Shown piece after piece: positions 17,460 through 40,337 of a stretch of 64,000 nt of DNA (its first letter is position 1; each line of letters opens with the position of its first letter). Source of the stretch: Candidatus Obscuribacteraceae bacterium (GTDB taxonomy: Bacteria; Cyanobacteriota; Vampirovibrionia; Obscuribacterales; Obscuribacteraceae); contig JBGAHS010000001.1 of assembly GCA_044226015.1 (NCBI GenBank), positions 864,001-928,000 on the forward strand. The letters run 5' to 3'. The notes under the pieces are model-generated. The model was not told the origin of the DNA, searched no databases, and saw nothing but the letters and a program-made list of their open reading frames with translations. A program made the translations under genes and the position numbers.

Positions 17460-17571
17460 GTTAGACTGAATTCAATGTAACACAGCGCTGTTAACAGATT
17501 TCACTTTCGACGCTAAGCGAAGGTAAAAGCATTGTTAGACAGAAATTTTACAGAGGGCTATTTCGCGCAAA

Positions 17572-18459
17572 ATGGCAAATCTGAGAATTATTTTGTTGAT
17601 GAGTATCTTTGTTTTGACCATTGGAGTCATGCTTACGACTCTTGGTTCAGAACCGAGCACCGATGAAGCTGCCTTCTTTTTGCGCAAAGTTCAGGAAGCT
17701 GATAAGCCAGTGGTGATTGCTCAATTTGGCGACAACACTTGCCATTGTCAGCCTCGAGGTGGCTTCAATGCGTTCCTGCACTTTGAGTCAGGTGAAGATG
17801 ATAATCTGGCTTTCATCTGGGGGCAAAAGTTCTTAATCGGAAGCATGAGCCAGCGGGAAATTCCAACCGTTGAAAAATTCAAGGGCAGTAATCTTCCCTG
17901 GGAGCAGCCAGAAAGTACGCAGGTAGATGTTCTGATTGCTTTTGATAAAGGCACCTACAGTCCCTACTTCTTGCCACTCGATATGGCTTATGGTCATCCG
18001 GTAAAGATCGCCGATTTGCAATCTTTCTGTAAGGACCCAAGTGCAGACTTCAATAGATCACTTGCTCTCAGGCTGCGCCCAAGTTTAGAGCCAGGTCTGC
18101 TTCCTGTTGCCGTCAAGGATCCAAACAAGAAGCCAGAGTTCACATCTGACTATTACCTGAGCTTGCTTCCTGCTGAGCAAGCAATTTATGTGAAACCTAC
18201 TGATGCTGCGGATGTCCTTATGTCTGACGGAGCAAAGAAAGCTGCTGCGAATTTTGCAGATCAGCTTCCCCGGCTGAAGTCAGCGACTTTACGCCTTGAG
18301 ATTGTTCGACGAGGACGTTTCCAGCGATGGGCGGTTAAGAAAGGTTCGGTTCGCGATCCCGTTTTTGCTCTTGCTGATGGAAAAGAACTTGCGCTTAAAA
18401 CTCCAGCACTTTTGCTTCCCAAAACTGAAGAGAAAAGTAGCGAAGATGCTGAGCATTGA
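17572..18459 (+). CDS. Membrane-anchored or secreted hypothetical protein
   Basis: N-terminal hydrophobic helix, CHCQPRGG motif, 295 aa. Confidence 0.75.
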   Translation: MANLRIILLMSIFVLTIGVMLTTLGSEPSTDEAAFFLRKVQEADKPVVIAQFGDNTCHCQPRGGFNAFLHFESGEDDNLAFIWGQKFLIGSMSQREIPTVEKFKGSNLPWEQPESTQVDVLIAFDKGTYSPYFLPLDMAYGHPVKIADLQSFCKDPSADFNRSLALRLRPSLEPGLLPVAVKDPNKKPEFTSDYYLSLLPAEQAIYVKPTDAADVLMSDGAKKAAANFADQLPRLKSATLRLEIVRRGRFQRWAVKKGSVRDPVFALADGKELALKTPALLLPKTEEKSSEDAEH

Positions 18460-18555
18460 GTGCTGTTTTCTCAATGTTGAAGAAAATGCGAATGACCTTA
18501 GAATGCATGCTTTCCGAAAACCGGAAATTCAGACAGTCTCTAGGCTCAGAACGCT

Positions 18556-18582
18556 TTGACCGGTTATAATACGTGTTATAGT
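18556..18582 (+). promoter_or_regulatory. Putative promoter and overlapping palindromic operator of the paaA-like gene
   Basis: TTGACC (18556-61) and extended -10 TGtTATAGT (18574-82); near-perfect 16-bp palindrome TATAATACGTGTTATA (18565-80). Confidence 0.55.
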
Positions 18583-18656
18583 TGCTAAAGCCACATAAGT
18601 GGTCACTGCGAAAGGGAAGCGCAAGCCTGAAAAGCTTGTCATTAAGGAGATACGAA

Positions 18657-19406
18657 ATGGTTGTTGTCGATGAAAAAGCGAAGCAAGAAGCCATGATGGC
18701 TAAAATCAACTCTGGCCAAAAGCTTGAGTCGCTTGATGAAGTAACCGAAGAGTACAGAGAGAATCTCCTCAAGCTGATGATAGCTCAAGCTGATTCAGAA
18801 TTAGCTGGCGCTTATGGATACGTACCGTGGATTCAAGGCGCACCGACAATGGCTGAGCGTCTTGCAATGGCAAACATCGTCAAAGACGAAATTCGCCATG
18901 CTCGTGCTATGTACGATCTTCTCGATAAAGTTGGTGTCGACACCGATAAGTTGATCGCTGACGATATGAAAAATCGCATGAAAGTATTTTATGAACCAAT
19001 CAAGACCTGGGCTGACCTCGTCATGTTCAACTTCCTTATGGATAGAGCTGCCGGTCACCAATTGAGAGATGCTGCAGAGTGCAGCTGGGGTCCATGGTCA
19101 CGTGCAATGGTTCAAATTGAGAAAGAAGAGTGGATGCATGTTCGCCACGGTGAGCATTGGGTCAAGAAGCTCGCCGGAAGTCCTGAAACCCATCAGGAAA
19201 TTCAAGCCGCGCTTGACTTCTGGTTCCCCAAGGTCAACCGTGTATTCGGCAAAGGCGGCAGCAAAACTAACCAAGACTTCCAGCACTTCAAGCTTAAACA
19301 GCGCGATAACCACGATGTTCGCGAAGCCTGGTACAACGAAATCAAAATATTGCTAGAAGGCTATGGATTGAAGGTTGCAGGAATTGACGTAGTCGATAAA
19401 GACTAG
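18657..19406 (+). CDS. Ferritin-like di-iron aryl-CoA epoxidase subunit (PaaA/BoxB-like, PaaA_PaaC family)
   Basis: Iron ligands intact: QADSE, KDEIRH, LMDRAA, KEEWMH; PaaA-like TWAD and SWGPWSRAM; ATG at 18657 after AAGGAG; 249 aa. Confidence 0.85.
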   Translation: MVVVDEKAKQEAMMAKINSGQKLESLDEVTEEYRENLLKLMIAQADSELAGAYGYVPWIQGAPTMAERLAMANIVKDEIRHARAMYDLLDKVGVDTDKLIADDMKNRMKVFYEPIKTWADLVMFNFLMDRAAGHQLRDAAECSWGPWSRAMVQIEKEEWMHVRHGEHWVKKLAGSPETHQEIQAALDFWFPKVNRVFGKGGSKTNQDFQHFKLKQRDNHDVREAWYNEIKILLEGYGLKVAGIDVVDKD

Positions 19407-19429
19407 TTTCAAGCCTGTTTGAATTATTG

Positions 19430-19464
19430 AGCAGAACGGATTCATTGAAGCCGTTCTGCTTTTT
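19430..19464 (+). terminator. Intrinsic terminator after the paaA-like gene
   Basis: Perfect 10-bp stem AGCAGAACGG / CCGTTCTGCT followed by TTTT. Confidence 0.75.
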
Positions 19465-19633
19465 ACTTCGGCAGCAATTTTCTTTTGCCGGACGCTTTCT
19501 GACTGGTGAAAGTACTGAACTGTGATCTTCTTGTTAAACCCGCTCAAATAGCGACTTCGAGGCGATCAAAACGGTTTCCGAGAGGGTATCATTTGACGCT
19601 ATATTCGTGCGTAGGTGAGGTCTTCGTCTTCCG

Positions 19634-20953
19634 ATGTGGAACGACAAGGTCGAGAGCATGTCCCGGGCAGAACTGGAGAAACTCCAGTCGCAACTTTTCG
19701 TGCGTATGCTGCGCCGCATCAACGAGTACGTTCCATTTTATGCAAACCTGTTATCGTCCAGTGGTGTGAATCTTGATTCAATAAATGGTATTGGCGACAT
19801 TCATCGCCTGCCATTCACTCGAAAGTCTGACCTCCGAGACAATTATCCACGCGGCTTGCTTGCTGTTCCCCAGGCTGAACTTCGGCGCTTTCACGCCTCA
19901 TCGGGAACTCGAGGCAAGCCGACGATTGTGGCATACACCCAGAATGATTTGGACAACTGGGCAGAACTCGGCGCACGCTCGCTATTTGCTGCTGGGGTGA
20001 GGCCTGGTGATATTGTTCATAATGCATATGGCTATGGCTTGTTCACTGGCGGACTGGGCGTTCATTATGCAATTGAAAGACTCGGTGCAATCGCTGTCCC
20101 CGCATCTGGTGGCAAGACTCAGCAGCAAATTAGTTTGCTGAAAGATCTTGGCGCCAGGGTAATTTGTTGTACGCCCTCATATGCATTGAGAGTGGCAAAC
20201 ACCTTGTTAGAACTTGGGGAGACTATCGATTCACTCAAGCTTGAAGTTGGCATATTTGGCGCTGAGCCGTGGAGCGAACCTATGCGAGCTCACATAGAGT
20301 CTGCGCTAGGTTTGAAAGCGATAGACATCTATGGGCTGAGCGAAATTATGGGACCAGGAGTCTCCATTGAGTGCAGTCAAGCCCGTTGTGGTTTGCACAT
20401 ATGGGAAGACCATTTTTATGCAGAAATCGTTGACCCCGTAAGCGGTGAGGTTTTACCGGAAAACGAAGAAGGCGAGCTAGTAATTACGACACTTCAAAAA
20501 GAAGCCATGCCACTTTTGCGATTCCGCACCGGTGATTTGTCTCGGCTTAGTCGTGAGAAATGCGCCTGTGGAAGAACAATGGCGCGAATGACTCGCGTGC
20601 GCGCTCGTCTGGACGATATGTTGATAATTCGCGGTGTAAACGTTTACCCGTCTGAAATCGAGAACATTTTGCTGAAGGTTGATGAGCTGGCCCCTCACTA
20701 TCAGCTTGTACTCAAGCGAGAGGAATCGCTAGATCAGTTATCGGTGCAAGTCGAAATTACAGAAGAGATTGTGGCTCGATGGGCCGAGGTTCAAGAAGAA
20801 GGTTTGCGTATTAAAGCTCTCAGCGACCGCATCAAATATCTGTTAAAGGAAAACCTGGGGCTTACAGTGGCGGTGGAGTTATTGCCTGCAAAATCCATCG
20901 CGCGCAGCGAGGGGAAAGCTTGCCGTCTAGTCGATTTGAGACAGAGTTATTAG
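19634..20953 (+). CDS. paaK: Phenylacetate-CoA ligase PaaK
   Basis: LPFTRKSDLRDNYP, HASSGTRGKPT, AYGYGLFTGGLG, GIFGAEPWSE, DIYGLSEIMGPGV, DDMLIIRGVNVYPS. Confidence 0.93.
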   Translation: MWNDKVESMSRAELEKLQSQLFVRMLRRINEYVPFYANLLSSSGVNLDSINGIGDIHRLPFTRKSDLRDNYPRGLLAVPQAELRRFHASSGTRGKPTIVAYTQNDLDNWAELGARSLFAAGVRPGDIVHNAYGYGLFTGGLGVHYAIERLGAIAVPASGGKTQQQISLLKDLGARVICCTPSYALRVANTLLELGETIDSLKLEVGIFGAEPWSEPMRAHIESALGLKAIDIYGLSEIMGPGVSIECSQARCGLHIWEDHFYAEIVDPVSGEVLPENEEGELVITTLQKEAMPLLRFRTGDLSRLSREKCACGRTMARMTRVRARLDDMLIIRGVNVYPSEIENILLKVDELAPHYQLVLKREESLDQLSVQVEITEEIVARWAEVQEEGLRIKALSDRIKYLLKENLGLTVAVELLPAKSIARSEGKACRLVDLRQSY

Positions 20954-20972: not shown

Positions 20973-21284
20973 ATGGTGGCAAAACTAATTACTCTACACA
21001 AAAAGCCGGCCGACGTTAAATCGTTTGACGAAGTCTATTTCAACGAACATATGGATGTCGCTCGCAAGATTCCAGGCTTGCAGTTAATTGAAGTGTCTCG
21101 CGTTGTTGGAGCTCCACAGGGAGAAGCTGATTTCTACTTGATGACGGAACTTTATTTCGAAAATTTGGAATCTGTCAAAGCAGGTATGGCGAGTCCGGAA
21201 GGTAAAGAGGCTATCGAGCATTTGAAGAGTTTTGCAGGAGAGCAAGTTAGTTCAATGTTTGCTGAAGTTGCAGAAAAAAACTAG
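20973..21284 (+). CDS. EthD family protein
   Basis: KKPADVKSFDEVYFNEH...IPGL...ELYFEN...SPEG; AAAGGAG RBS. Confidence 0.88.
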   Translation: MVAKLITLHKKPADVKSFDEVYFNEHMDVARKIPGLQLIEVSRVVGAPQGEADFYLMTELYFENLESVKAGMASPEGKEAIEHLKSFAGEQVSSMFAEVAEKN

Positions 21285-21348: not shown

Positions 21349-22245
21349 ATGGTACAACAAATTGAGAAACTGCTAAACGGAATGGATCCTGAGGAGTTTA
21401 ACTTTCAGCGAATCCTTTATAGCAAGCAAGGCTATGTAGCCACGATTACTATAAATAGACCCGAAGTATTGAACTGCTTCGACATGATTACCTTGAAAGA
21501 ACTCGGACTTGCTTTTGAAGATGTGAGCCGTGACGACAACATAGCCGTGATGGTTTTGACTGGCGCTGGCGATCGCGCTTTCTGCACTGGAGCAGATTTG
21601 AAAGAGCAAGAGGAACATATTCTCAAAAAGCCAAATAATTACTACAAGTGGATGTATCAGTTTATCGAAATGCACGATCGGCTTCGCAATATTGGTAAGC
21701 CAACCATTGCAAGACTAAACGGTATGACTGTCGGTGGTGGAAACGAATTGAACATGGCTTGCGACCTGGCTGTTGCTGCTGATCATGTAATCATCAGGCA
21801 GGTTGGTGCTGCTCGTGGTAGTGTCGCCGCTGGTGGCGCGACTCAATGGCTGCCGATGATTGTGGGCGACCGCCGCGCCCGCGAAATGCTACTTCTTTGT
21901 GAAGGACTTGATGCTTACACGGCACTAGACTGGGGGCTGGTAAATCAAGTGGTGCCAATGTCTATGCTTGATGATGCCGTCAATCAATTGGCTGAAAAAC
22001 TCTACAAGAAATTGCCAGAATGCACGCGCTATACAAAGCAGCAGTTAAATTTCTGGAGAGATTTCTCGTGGTCTATGACAATTGGTCATGCTCGCGATTG
22101 GCTAAGCCTGCACGCAGGCTCGCTTGAGACTGCAGAAGGGCTTCGCTCGTTCCGTCAGAAAAATGAAATCAATTACCCCGGCATTCGCTGCAAGGCTGCC
22201 GGTCCTGTGCCACCACCCTCACCGATTGGCAGTGGCATCGAGTAA
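21349..22245 (+). CDS. Crotonase-family protein, Oah/BadI/MenB-like ring-opening hydrolase
   Basis: AFCTGADLKE, NGMTVGGGNE, GSVAAGGATQWLP, LLLCE, C-terminal PECTRYTK...ARDWLSLH. Confidence 0.8.
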   Translation: MVQQIEKLLNGMDPEEFNFQRILYSKQGYVATITINRPEVLNCFDMITLKELGLAFEDVSRDDNIAVMVLTGAGDRAFCTGADLKEQEEHILKKPNNYYKWMYQFIEMHDRLRNIGKPTIARLNGMTVGGGNELNMACDLAVAADHVIIRQVGAARGSVAAGGATQWLPMIVGDRRAREMLLLCEGLDAYTALDWGLVNQVVPMSMLDDAVNQLAEKLYKKLPECTRYTKQQLNFWRDFSWSMTIGHARDWLSLHAGSLETAEGLRSFRQKNEINYPGIRCKAAGPVPPPSPIGSGIE

Positions 22246-22325
22246 GGACAAGTTCAAAGTCTAATAGTTAGCAGACAAATGGAGATGATACGCAAATGAC
22301 AGTAATAATGAAAGAGGAGAAGGAG

Positions 22326-23108
22326 ATGAGTACTTCAACGTACAAAAACATCAAAACCGAAACTGAAGGACAAATCGCGATTGTTTCGTTGAATCGTCCC
22401 CAGGTTCTGAATGCTTTGAACCATGAGCTGATGTCTGAATTGGCTGATGCTCTAGAAGGTTTTGATCGCGACGAATCTATCCGCGTAATCATTCTTACTG
22501 GAAGTGAAAGAGCATTCGCTGCAGGCGCCGATATTAAAGAAATGGCTGATGAAGGTGCCGTTTCAATTTTGTTGAAGGACAGGCTCGCTACTTGGGACCG
22601 TGTTCGTTTCATCAAGAAGCCTATCATCGCTGCCGTGAGTGGATTTGCCCTCGGCGGTGGTTGCGAACTGGCGATGACCTGCGACATGATTGTCGCTTCT
22701 GAGTCCGCTCAATTCGGTCAACCAGAAATCAACATCGGTGTAATTCCTGGTGCTGGTGGAACGCAGCGTCTCACCCTGGCAGTTGGAAAAGCAAAAGCCA
22801 TGGAATTGATTCTGACTGGTCGTCCATTCACTGCACATGAAGCGCTGTCTATGGGGTTGATCAACAAGGTTGTTCCAACCGAAATGTTGATGGACGAAGT
22901 GAAGACACTTGCTGCTGAAATCGCTAAGAAATCACCACTAGCGGTTAGAACTGCGAAAGAATCCATTCTCAAAGCTTATGAAATGACCTTGACCGAAGGC
23001 TTGAACTTCGAAAGAAAGAACTTCTACATGCTTTTCGCTTCTGAAGATCAGAAGGAAGGTATGAAAGCCTTCATGGAGAAGCGCCCAGCTACATTCACCG
23101 GTCATTAA
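22326..23108 (+). CDS. paaF: Enoyl-CoA hydratase (2,3-dehydroadipyl-CoA hydratase, PaaF-like)
   Basis: AFAAGADIKE, ALGGGCE, FGQPEINIGVIPGAGGTQRL (both catalytic Glu present); paa context. Alternative start 22296. Confidence 0.8.
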   Translation: MSTSTYKNIKTETEGQIAIVSLNRPQVLNALNHELMSELADALEGFDRDESIRVIILTGSERAFAAGADIKEMADEGAVSILLKDRLATWDRVRFIKKPIIAAVSGFALGGGCELAMTCDMIVASESAQFGQPEINIGVIPGAGGTQRLTLAVGKAKAMELILTGRPFTAHEALSMGLINKVVPTEMLMDEVKTLAAEIAKKSPLAVRTAKESILKAYEMTLTEGLNFERKNFYMLFASEDQKEGMKAFMEKRPATFTGH

Positions 23109-23131: not shown

Positions 23132-23929
23132 ATGTCAGACGAAAAAATATTGCTTGTTGAAAAGAATGATGGTGTTTGCGTCATTACTTTGAATAGACCC
23201 GATAAGCTAAACGCCTTCAACGACGAACTTAGCTTTCAACTAATTGATGCTTTGAAAGAAGCTGAAAAAGATGCTGCAGTTCGCGCCGTCGTCATAACCG
23301 GTGCCGGACGTGGTTTCTGCTCTGGTCAGGACCTTGCAAACCGCAAGTTCAGTGATGCCAGCGAAAAGCGTCCTTCGCTTTCTGAATCTATCCGCAGAAG
23401 ATATAACCCGATGGTCATCAAAATTCGCAAGATGGAAAAGCCAGTCATTGCGGCCGTCAATGGTGTCGCAGCTGGTGCGGGTAGCAGCCTCGCGCTTGCT
23501 TGCGATTTGCGTGTTGTAGCAGACAATGCTAACTTCATTCAATCATTCACTAAAGTCGGTCTGGTTCCTGACTCAGGTGCTACCTTCATTCTGCCAAGAC
23601 TAATTGGTGCCACTAAAGCATTCGAACTGATGCTTAGCGCTGATAAACTTAGTGCAAAAGAAGCTTTCGACCTCGGTATCGTGAATAAGTTGGTGGCTCC
23701 AGAAAAAGTTCTTGAAGAAGCTATCGAATGGGCCCAGACTCTAGCGAAGGGACCGACCAAAGCATTCGGATTAACTAAGAGAGCAGTCAATGCAGCCATA
23801 TTCCCAGACCTCGAAGAACGTTTGGAGTATGAAGCTTACATGCAAGAAATTGCTGGTCGCAGCGACGATTTCCAGGAAGGCGTTACAGCGTTTCTCGAAA
23901 AACGTACTCCAGCATACAAAGGCAAGTAG
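23132..23929 (+). CDS. paaG: 2-(1,2-epoxy-1,2-dihydrophenyl)acetyl-CoA isomerase PaaG
   Basis: GRGFCSGQDL, YNPMV, AVNGVAAGAGSSLALACD, FIQSFTKVGLVPDSG: PaaG-type signature. Confidence 0.88.
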   Translation: MSDEKILLVEKNDGVCVITLNRPDKLNAFNDELSFQLIDALKEAEKDAAVRAVVITGAGRGFCSGQDLANRKFSDASEKRPSLSESIRRRYNPMVIKIRKMEKPVIAAVNGVAAGAGSSLALACDLRVVADNANFIQSFTKVGLVPDSGATFILPRLIGATKAFELMLSADKLSAKEAFDLGIVNKLVAPEKVLEEAIEWAQTLAKGPTKAFGLTKRAVNAAIFPDLEERLEYEAYMQEIAGRSDDFQEGVTAFLEKRTPAYKGK

Positions 23930-39262: not shown

Positions 39263-39871
39263 ATGAATTTGGATATTCGCGAAATCAAGGCAAGGTTTGA
39301 TGATAGAAGCATCCGTGTCTATCAGGCCTATGGCAAGGATATTGCTGAGGCAGCTTTGAGAAATAATCGCTTCGTTTCACCATTCAAAATGGAGCGCATG
39401 ACATGGATAAAGCCTTCATTCAACTGGATGATGTATCGGTCTGGCTACGCGAAGAAGCCCGGGCAAGAGTACGTTCTTGCCATAGACATAAGCTGTGAAG
39501 GATTTGACTGGGCTGTGGAGAATGCAGTCTTATCTCATTTCGTACCTGAAATTCATGGAGACTACGATTGCTGGAAAGAGTTGCTTGCAAACTCTGAGGT
39601 CAGGGTTCAATGGGACCCAGCCCGTGATTGGCGCATCAACGAAATCGCTGGTGAAAGGGCAATTCAAATAGGCTTATCAAAAAGTGCAGTACAGAAGTAT
39701 GTAAATGAGTGGATTCTCTCGATAACAGATGTGACATCAGTTGCTCATGCTGTTGATGAGTCTCGCCGCTTGAAACAAGAGCCGAGTGAGCGTCCAGACC
39801 TTCTTGAGAGAGTCTACGCGATGAGTGAGACTGCAAAGCTTAAGCTATGCTCTGTAACTAATCAGAATTAG
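39263..39871 (+). CDS. DUF4291 family protein
   Basis: REIKARFD...VYQAY, RMTWIKPSFNWMMYRSG, VRVQWDPARD, RAIQIGL. Confidence 0.85.
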   Translation: MNLDIREIKARFDDRSIRVYQAYGKDIAEAALRNNRFVSPFKMERMTWIKPSFNWMMYRSGYAKKPGQEYVLAIDISCEGFDWAVENAVLSHFVPEIHGDYDCWKELLANSEVRVQWDPARDWRINEIAGERAIQIGLSKSAVQKYVNEWILSITDVTSVAHAVDESRRLKQEPSERPDLLERVYAMSETAKLKLCSVTNQN

Positions 39872-40337
39872 ATGAATCAGGCTCGTTGAATTTTGCCAGA
39901 TCCTCTTCGCTTACAGTATGTCCACTGGTACCGTATGAGGTGCCACGAAAGTGGGCAAGCGTTTCATTGTGCTGGTTGCTAATCGTTATATCGTAAAGCC
40001 CAGTTCGCCCCTTCAGGGAAACTTCTTCGGCACGGGCTGTAAGGGTGTCGCCTTCCACTGCACTTTTTACGAAGCTTATGGTGCACTGAAGCGCAACTGT
40101 CTTTCTATTTCTGGAATTACATGCGTAGGCAAAAGCTGTGTCTGCCAGAGCAAAAATAAATCCGCCGTGACAGATTGCAAGCCCGTTGAGCATATCTCTT
40201 CTGACTTTCATTGAGAGACTTGCCGTACCTTCACTGACAGAGTTGATGGAGATTCCCATGGACTGCGCAGCGAAGTCGCGAGTCATGACTAGTTCCATGA
40301 TTTTTCGGGGGTCGGGCTGTTCTGTTTTTATTGTCAT
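39858..40337 (-). CDS. paaI: Hotdog-fold (hydroxy)phenylacetyl-CoA thioesterase PaaI
   Basis: DMLNGLAICHGGFIFALADTAFAYACNS, GRTGLYD, FRGTS. Confidence 0.9.
   Translation of the reverse strand: MTIKTEQPDPRKIMELVMTRDFAAQSMGISINSVSEGTASLSMKVRRDMLNGLAICHGGFIFALADTAFAYACNSRNRKTVALQCTISFVKSAVEGDTLTARAEEVSLKGRTGLYDITISNQHNETLAHFRGTSYGTSGHTVSEEDLAKFNEPDSSNSD

Follow-up and report, generated by a model that had tools for sequence, protein, structure and literature searches.

Short PaaA-like di-iron proteins of a conserved clade that has yet to be characterised take the place of paaABCDE in paa-type gene clusters. The member studied here, a protein of 249 aa, is encoded in the window (the whole stretch of DNA analysed, 64 kb), where its gene heads a same-strand block in the order paaK-ethD-crotonase-paaF-paaG. 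We propose that it is a single-gene, homodimeric phenylacetyl-CoA-type epoxidase, which would use a borrowed electron carrier and likely replaces the whole PaaABCDE module, a proposal that draws on sequence comparisons and structural models and to which we give somewhat better than an even chance. If it is true, one gene would stand where five normally stand, and non-photosynthetic, uncultured lineages related to cyanobacteria would hold an undescribed minimal form of phenylacetyl-CoA epoxidase.

The gene and its neighbourhood

The 249-aa protein scores 152.8 bits against PF05138 (PaaA_PaaC; cut-off 28.5) and is thus a member of this family; with its six ligands aligned to those of PaaA, the ferritin-like reading frame with all metal ligands that the first-pass annotation had claimed is borne out. 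An alternative TTG start would lengthen the frame; relatives of the protein are 245-250 aa long. A strong terminator directly after the gene had also been claimed and was confirmed by folding of positions 19407-19480 (-25.8 kcal/mol, equalled by 0 of 200 shuffles); the hairpin has a loop of 11 nt and is therefore not listed by the terminator scanner, whose loop limit is 8 nt. The promoter ascribed to the gene could not be substantiated, as a scan of positions 17500-20500 returned 3 promoter-like sites against 2.9 expected, which is chance level, and the TATAAT hexamer picked out by eye has no well-spaced -35 element and is absent from the scan output.

Table 1. Coordinates of the short PaaA-like gene, its signals and the surrounding paa-type genes in the window.
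Feature	Position	Strand	Remarks
Short PaaA-like ferritin-fold protein, 249 aa, six di-iron ligands	18657..19406	+	focal gene
Ribosome-binding site AAGGAG, 7 nt 5' of ATG	18644..18649	+	read from sequence
Promoter-like hexamers, TATAAT at 18565-18570	18556..18582	+	by eye; off-consensus spacing, candidate
Intrinsic-terminator-like hairpin and T run	19429..19464	+	folding z -4.51
PaaK-like aryl-acetate CoA ligase	19634..20953	+	TIGR02155 560 bits, cut-off 646; 49% to E. coli PaaK
EthD family protein	20973..21284	+	TIGR02118 above cut-off
Crotonase scoring alike with MenB, BadI and Oah	21349..22245	+	167-173 bits, all below cut-off
PaaF-like enoyl-CoA hydratase	22296..23108	+	44% to E. coli PaaF
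PaaG-like isomerase	23132..23929	+	TIGR02280 306 bits, cut-off 345; 46% to E. coli PaaG
PaaI thioesterase	39858..40337	-	TIGR02286 150 bits, cut-off 118.9; unlinked, about 20 kb off

The description of the gene as stand-alone holds for the subunits and not for the gene context, since the block listed in Table 1 follows on the same strand. The PaaK-, PaaF- and PaaG-like neighbours all miss their NCBIfam cut-offs, and we regard the crotonase as a candidate ring-opening hydrolase. The arrangement behind the short PaaA-like gene is kept in relatives: 30 GTDB loci of the clade, most of them from Obscuribacterales or Melainabacteria as the closest relatives, hold paaK in 21 cases, ethD in 23, crotonase in 25, paaF in 24 and paaG in 23, with a FlK-type thioesterase in 11, and several of these loci end at contig ends. 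The separate transcription unit seen in the window is not general, because the downstream gene match begins at most 90 nt from the stop codon in 12 of the 28 order-level loci that have one. A sample of 401 genomes of the phylum contained 12 further carriers in another class, presumably Sericytochromatia, and in all 12 the gene sits between paaF/paaG-like and paaH-like genes. Relatives with 46-52% identity were found in 71 redundant metagenome loci, 40 of them with paaK and 7 with paaG, and two protein clusters include members named Rokubacteria and Kapaibacterium. At one locus (L131:7989-13299), the clade gene precedes genes for an aldehyde dehydrogenase, a ferritin-like protein that is divergent and matches weakly, a ferredoxin resembling BoxA and a dioxygenase resembling HpaD; at no other locus does a BoxA-like ferredoxin lie beside the clade gene.

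The block also occurs without the di-iron gene. Its crotonase is present in 80 of the 85 genomes of the order with 69-90% identity, against 50-63% for the neighbouring paaK, which suggests a core role in CoA-ester metabolism that is independent of the di-iron gene. The short PaaA-like gene is missing from 59 of these 80 genomes, 20 of which have no PF05138 gene at all, and paaK, crotonase, paaF and paaG were kept in 16 of the 16 loci inspected among the 59. The block is therefore either useful without the oxygenase or was retained after repeated loss of it.

Ligands, fold and phylogeny

Residues E48, E78, H81, D129, E158 and H161 align to E42, E72, H75, D126, E155 and H158 of E. coli PaaA, the di-iron ligands given in section 3.2 of PMC4498308, and do not vary among the 37 relatives in the alignment. 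The protein lies outside canonical PaaA and BoxB by its equivalog scores (TIGR02156, 130 bits against a cut-off of 280; TIGR03225, 39 bits against 499, with 249 aa against about 470 aa), and it stays below the PaaC equivalog as well (TIGR02158, 63 bits against 133), whose hallmark loss of iron ligands it does not share, all six being kept. A profile of the clade scores 131 bits with PaaA, 109 with SSO1313 of Sulfolobus solfataricus, 51 with BoxB and 18 with PaaC.

Around the iron site, Q44, D46, F124 and R130 correspond to Q116, D118, F206 and R212 of BoxB, where E. coli PaaA has H38, H40, I121 and G127. The lysine bridge of PaaA (K68/E49) is replaced by I74 and Y55 in 31 of 31 clade rows. M128 is invariant in the clade and unlike both PaaA and BoxB, whereas F111 is the same residue in both. 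Comparison of the benzoyl pocket of BoxB (Q116, T119, S123, F193, F206, T210) with the clade residues (Q44, S47, G51, F111, F124, M128) gives three identical, one similar and two different positions; Q116, F193 and F206 are named as second-shell residues in the text available of PMC5489048. The loss of the lysine bridge together with the BoxB-like Q44 and F124 indicates that the substrate may differ from that of PaaA. The first-pass annotation had called the protein a PaaA/BoxB intermediate. The BoxB-like motifs are real, but overall the protein is nearer to PaaA, both in profile score and in fold, and the word intermediate applies to residues and not to descent, since BoxB is absent from our trees.

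The AF2 model of the protein (pLDDT 94.7) has the PaaA fold, with PaaA as its best match (Z 29.1, rmsd 1.7, 242 aligned residues, TM 0.88), followed by SSO1313 (Z 26.4), PaaC (Z 24.1) and BoxB (Z 22.5). Prediction with two copies gave a symmetric dimer that forms via residues 53-100 with a score of 0.75, compared with 0.01 for the best of 3 controls; 100% of the contacts agree between runs and the pLDDT is at least 91. Of 30 solved homopairs, 20 attain the mark used for this score, as does 1 of 23 single chains. The protein is thus predicted to form a homodimer, a score that likeness to the solved PaaAC or SSO1313 structures may drive. According to section 3.2 of PMC4498308, PaaA of E. coli depends for its solubility on PaaC, which covers a hydrophobic face, and the predicted homodimer fits this need. 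The earlier suggestion of a single-subunit or homo-oligomeric form agrees with this prediction and with the finding of a sole PF05138 gene in 25 genomes (see below).

The suggested comparison with PaaA by phylogeny was made with two midpoint-rooted trees that do not include BoxB and SSO1313, and in neither is the 249-aa protein nested in canonical PaaA. In a FastTree analysis of 153 rows, six canonical PaaA proteins form a branch with a support of 99 without the 14 clade rows, and a quick IQ-TREE tree of 69 rows likewise places the clade outside canonical PaaA. The clade forms one side of a branch in both trees, with support of 92 and 93. For the larger tree, three long-branch rows were dropped, clade rows were thinned and 116 of 150 representatives (215-340 aa) were kept; here the clade stands among many short proteins of 235-285 aa. 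A search of representatives returned 1667 clusters at E 0.001, and a search of the ESM Atlas returned PF05138 clusters only.

Other arrangements of PF05138 genes are found in this wider family. On plasmids of Burkholderia stagnalis and Alteromonas (L186:6076-8473 and L188:5938-8293), a lone short PF05138 gene stands ahead of genes for radical SAM and hotdog-fold proteins, the first of the two loci adjoining an NRPS/halogenase cluster. These genes are probably biosynthetic; their products have a glutamate at the position of D129 and lie on another branch of the tree than the clade. Given such company, the mere fact that a PF05138 gene is lone does not imply ring epoxidation. A Thermus plasmid (L184:8998-11401) carries PaaA-like and PaaC-like genes with three small ORFs between them, and its A subunit is the closest plasmid match to the clade (34%), with which it shares D46, Y55, I74, N125 and the DR motif. 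On a Streptomyces plasmid (L187:6028-8473), a PaaA-like gene, a gene that matches the PaaB and PaaC profiles and a PaaD-like gene occur with ketoacyl-ACP synthase III genes. Finally, a 637-aa protein (L034:244-2157) has a C-terminal PF05138 domain and an N-terminal part that by eye is nucleotidyltransferase-like; its gene adjoins a glycosyltransferase-like gene.

Partner genes in this genome and its relatives

The reported absence of paaB, paaC, paaD and paaE from the 64 kb holds for the window and also for the genome (92% complete), in which no orthologue of these genes or of boxA was found. The best PaaB profile match has an E value of 0.84. By eye, the best PaaD candidate (42 bits, cut-off 108) belongs to a SUF-type cluster and the best PaaE candidate (48 bits against a cut-off of 421) to a cluster of hydrogenase type, and both were rejected. 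BoxA (best match 63 bits, to the ferredoxin part only, on another contig, C10) and BoxC (60 bits) stay far below their cut-offs, and nothing in the genome exceeds the cut-off for PaaZ/N. A PaaJ-like thiolase (60%) and PaaH-like genes (34-42%) are encoded elsewhere in the genome.

The short PaaA-like gene is present in 22 of 85 genomes of the order and is the sole PF05138 gene in 13 of these, while the other-class carriers have exactly one PF05138 gene in 12 of 12. Since PF05138 missed some divergent paralogues in relatives, the clade profile at E 0.01 was used as well, and it gave exactly one match in each of the 25 lone-gene genomes; as a control, this profile recovers both C10 paralogues in the genome of the window (G000). 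The 25 genomes are 86-100% complete, and 16 of them combine a completeness of 90% or more with a contamination of 5% or less; such counts are not independent, because the assemblies are incomplete and related. No PaaB match above the cut-off came from the 85 order-level genomes or from the 12 other-class ones, where one match of 22 bits lies inside a 1030-aa frame; the PaaB control was positive in three known genomes. The co-occurrence analysis called for by the first-pass annotation thus finds a single clade gene, no second PF05138 gene and no PaaB in 25 genomes.

Profiles for PaaB, PaaC, PaaD and PaaE, each built from 2-7 annotated sequences, likewise detected no PaaB, PaaD or PaaE and no separate PaaC in 122 loci, a result that at the distant metagenome loci covers the flanks up to 8 kb on each side. 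Three double matches among the 122 loci come from copies split by a frameshift, and at one locus a second ferritin-like gene gives a weak match. No small gene was seen to travel with the clade across lineages at the loci compared. A true PaaK is absent from the 12 other-class genomes (best matches of 78-114 bits in nine, none in three) and a gene for the alpha subunit of a 2-oxoacid dehydrogenase E1 lies near the clade gene in four of their loci, so that the CoA thioester may there come from phenylpyruvate.

A further PF05138 locus of the genome, on C10 (L011:10497-12341 = G000:C10:470496-472340), consists of two tandem PF05138 genes followed by a 2x[4Fe-4S] ferredoxin gene whose product matches the N-terminus of BoxA. 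One of the two proteins has threonine in place of the D129 ligand and the other lacks three ligands; the latter is 30% identical to the 249-aa protein over 240 aa. The ferredoxin is found in 50 of the 85 genomes of the order, adjoining the first PF05138 gene, and the paralogue is often missing or diverged. Both systems occur in 9 genomes, the short PaaA-like gene only in 13, the C10 system only in 41 and neither in 22 (Fisher p 0.08, with kin that are not independent). On this distribution, with 13 genomes that lack the C10 system, we reject the C10 pair and its ferredoxin as obligate partners, and the C10 genes are a separate system.

Regarding the electron donor, for which the first-pass annotation had suggested a trans-encoded reductase, the searches returned no candidate that fits: no reductase gene lies beside the short PaaA-like gene at the loci, and the BoxA-like ferredoxin of C10 is absent from 13 of 13 lone-gene genomes of the order. 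A Rieske ferredoxin on C10 was considered and set aside; it occurs in 15 of the 85 genomes and in 9 of the 22 clade-positive ones, stands in a housekeeping context and shows no clear link. Among longer homologues no fusion with a reductase was found, which is weak evidence, and the one match looks like a mis-translated paaK running on into the clade gene.

Proposed function and known systems

We infer that the clade protein works like PaaA. The CoA thioester would be supplied by PaaK or, in PaaK-less lineages, by a 2-oxoacid dehydrogenase acting on phenylpyruvate. The reduced di-iron centre, with electrons likely borrowed from a housekeeping carrier, could then activate O2 to form the 1,2-epoxide of the phenylacetyl-CoA ring, while the structural role of PaaC would fall to a second copy of the protein. 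In the next steps, the PaaG-like protein may isomerise the epoxide to oxepin-CoA, the crotonase would open the ring in place of PaaZ, and an aldehyde dehydrogenase together with PaaF/H/J-like enzymes could complete the route by beta-oxidation. More tentatively, and with a chance of perhaps one third, we speculate that the protein is a 250-residue homodimeric arene-CoA epoxidase that allows full phenylacetyl-CoA ring cleavage without PaaB, C, D, E and Z, that it keeps an ancestral symmetric state, which duplication and ligand loss turned into the PaaA-PaaC heterodimer, and that short PF05138 di-iron enzymes form a large and as yet unstudied radiation with the clade as one of its branches.

One might also envisage a lone di-iron oxygenase that hydroxylates rather than epoxidises, or one that acts on another CoA thioester, be it of the benzoyl-CoA type, a phenylacetyl-CoA with substituents or a thioester with a different ring. 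We judge this unlikely, as BoxA and BoxC orthologues are absent from the genome, the adjacent isomerase and ligase fit PaaG and PaaK best and PaaF/G/H-like genes flank the clade gene at every other-class locus; what speaks for it is that three second-shell residues of BoxB are kept as Q44, F111 and F124, that the invariant M128 fits neither enzyme, that the neighbours score below their cut-offs and the extra crotonase resembles Oah/BadI, and that an HpaD-like dioxygenase is encoded nearby at one distant locus. The insolubility of E. coli PaaA without PaaC raises the question of a partner beyond the reach of our searches, such as a small protein without homology or a dedicated carrier with its gene at another site. 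The ligand-less C10 paralogue could substitute for PaaC in this genome, given its identity to the clade protein and, with a support of 86, its sister position to the clade in one of the trees, and PF05138 alone did miss divergent paralogues in relatives. However, the clade profile has a single match in all of the lone-gene genomes, the C10 system and the clade gene each occur widely without the other and no small gene accompanies the clade across lineages, so that such a partner seems rather improbable.

We rank lowest, by a narrow margin, an accessory role in which the protein is not the entry oxygenase but, for example, an epoxide deoxygenase or a detoxifying di-iron protein on a CoA-ester block. 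The near-universal block of the order, compared with the limited occurrence of the clade gene and its own terminator in the window, would suit such a role, and PaaABCE too removes the epoxide oxygen, as stated in the text available of PMC5489048. Yet patchy distribution is equally compatible with repeated loss, the gene lies inside a run between paaG- and paaH-like genes in the other class, close spacing to the downstream gene is common at order-level loci, and the lone-gene genomes encode no other ring oxygenase of the PF05138 family to make an epoxide.

If the proposed epoxidase is active, it would be the smallest arene-epoxidising di-iron enzyme, simpler to express and study than a four-protein complex, and it would offer a direct test of the purpose that the lysine bridge, PaaB and PaaC serve. 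Non-photosynthetic cyanobacterial lineages would in that case also be credited with aerobic catabolism of aromatic compounds, likely derived from phenylalanine. Pathway surveys take PaaA and PaaC as markers, according to the accessible text of PMC13186573, a survey of 2026, so that organisms with the single gene would score as unable to degrade phenylacetyl-CoA. The literature accessible to us, mostly without full texts or subscription journals, yielded no paper that deals with a one-gene phenylacetyl-CoA epoxidase or with the function of SSO1313.

Among the known systems, PaaA is the catalytic subunit of the phenylacetyl-CoA 1,2-epoxidase PaaABC(D)E (E. coli, Klebsiella; PDB 3PW8, 3PVR, 4IIT). 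The clade shares with it the fold, the six ligands, the positions F108, K214 and N218 and the paa-type neighbours; the 249-aa protein is 28% identical to PaaA and about 60 residues shorter, its model aligning to PaaA residues 2-262. In contrast to PaaA, the clade has no lysine bridge, stands outside the canonical clade and is encoded without PaaB, C, D and E. BoxB, the benzoyl-CoA 2,3-epoxidase of Azoarcus evansii (PDB 3PM5, 3PER), has in common with the clade the six ligands, the equivalents of Q116, D118, F193, F206 and R212 and the lack of an encoded structural subunit, whereas the clade protein has half its length, a more distant fold and no BoxA or BoxC. As described in the part of PMC4498308 available, BoxB is monomeric, unlike the predicted dimer of the clade protein, and it provides a precedent that such an epoxidase can do without a structural subunit.

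SSO1313 (PDB 4MUD, 235 aa), entitled 'ring oxydation complex/phenylacetic acid degradation related protein', is like the clade a short PF05138 protein of the same size. It is the best single-sequence PDB match (83 bits), superposes with an rmsd of 1.9 and is 25-27% identical to the 249-aa protein; in the S. acidocaldarius control genome, PF05138 was detected and PaaB was not. From the portions of PMC7497051 and PMC9007349 available, clusters are known that do without PaaZ and use a separate aldehyde dehydrogenase together with a hydrolase of the crotonase type. 'Partial multicomponent' paa clusters of Bacillota and Halobacteria, with PaaA and PaaC only as far as PMC13186573 could be consulted, resemble the clade in their reduced set of epoxidase genes and in the lack of a local reductase, but they keep both PaaA and PaaC, whereas the clade loci hold one gene.
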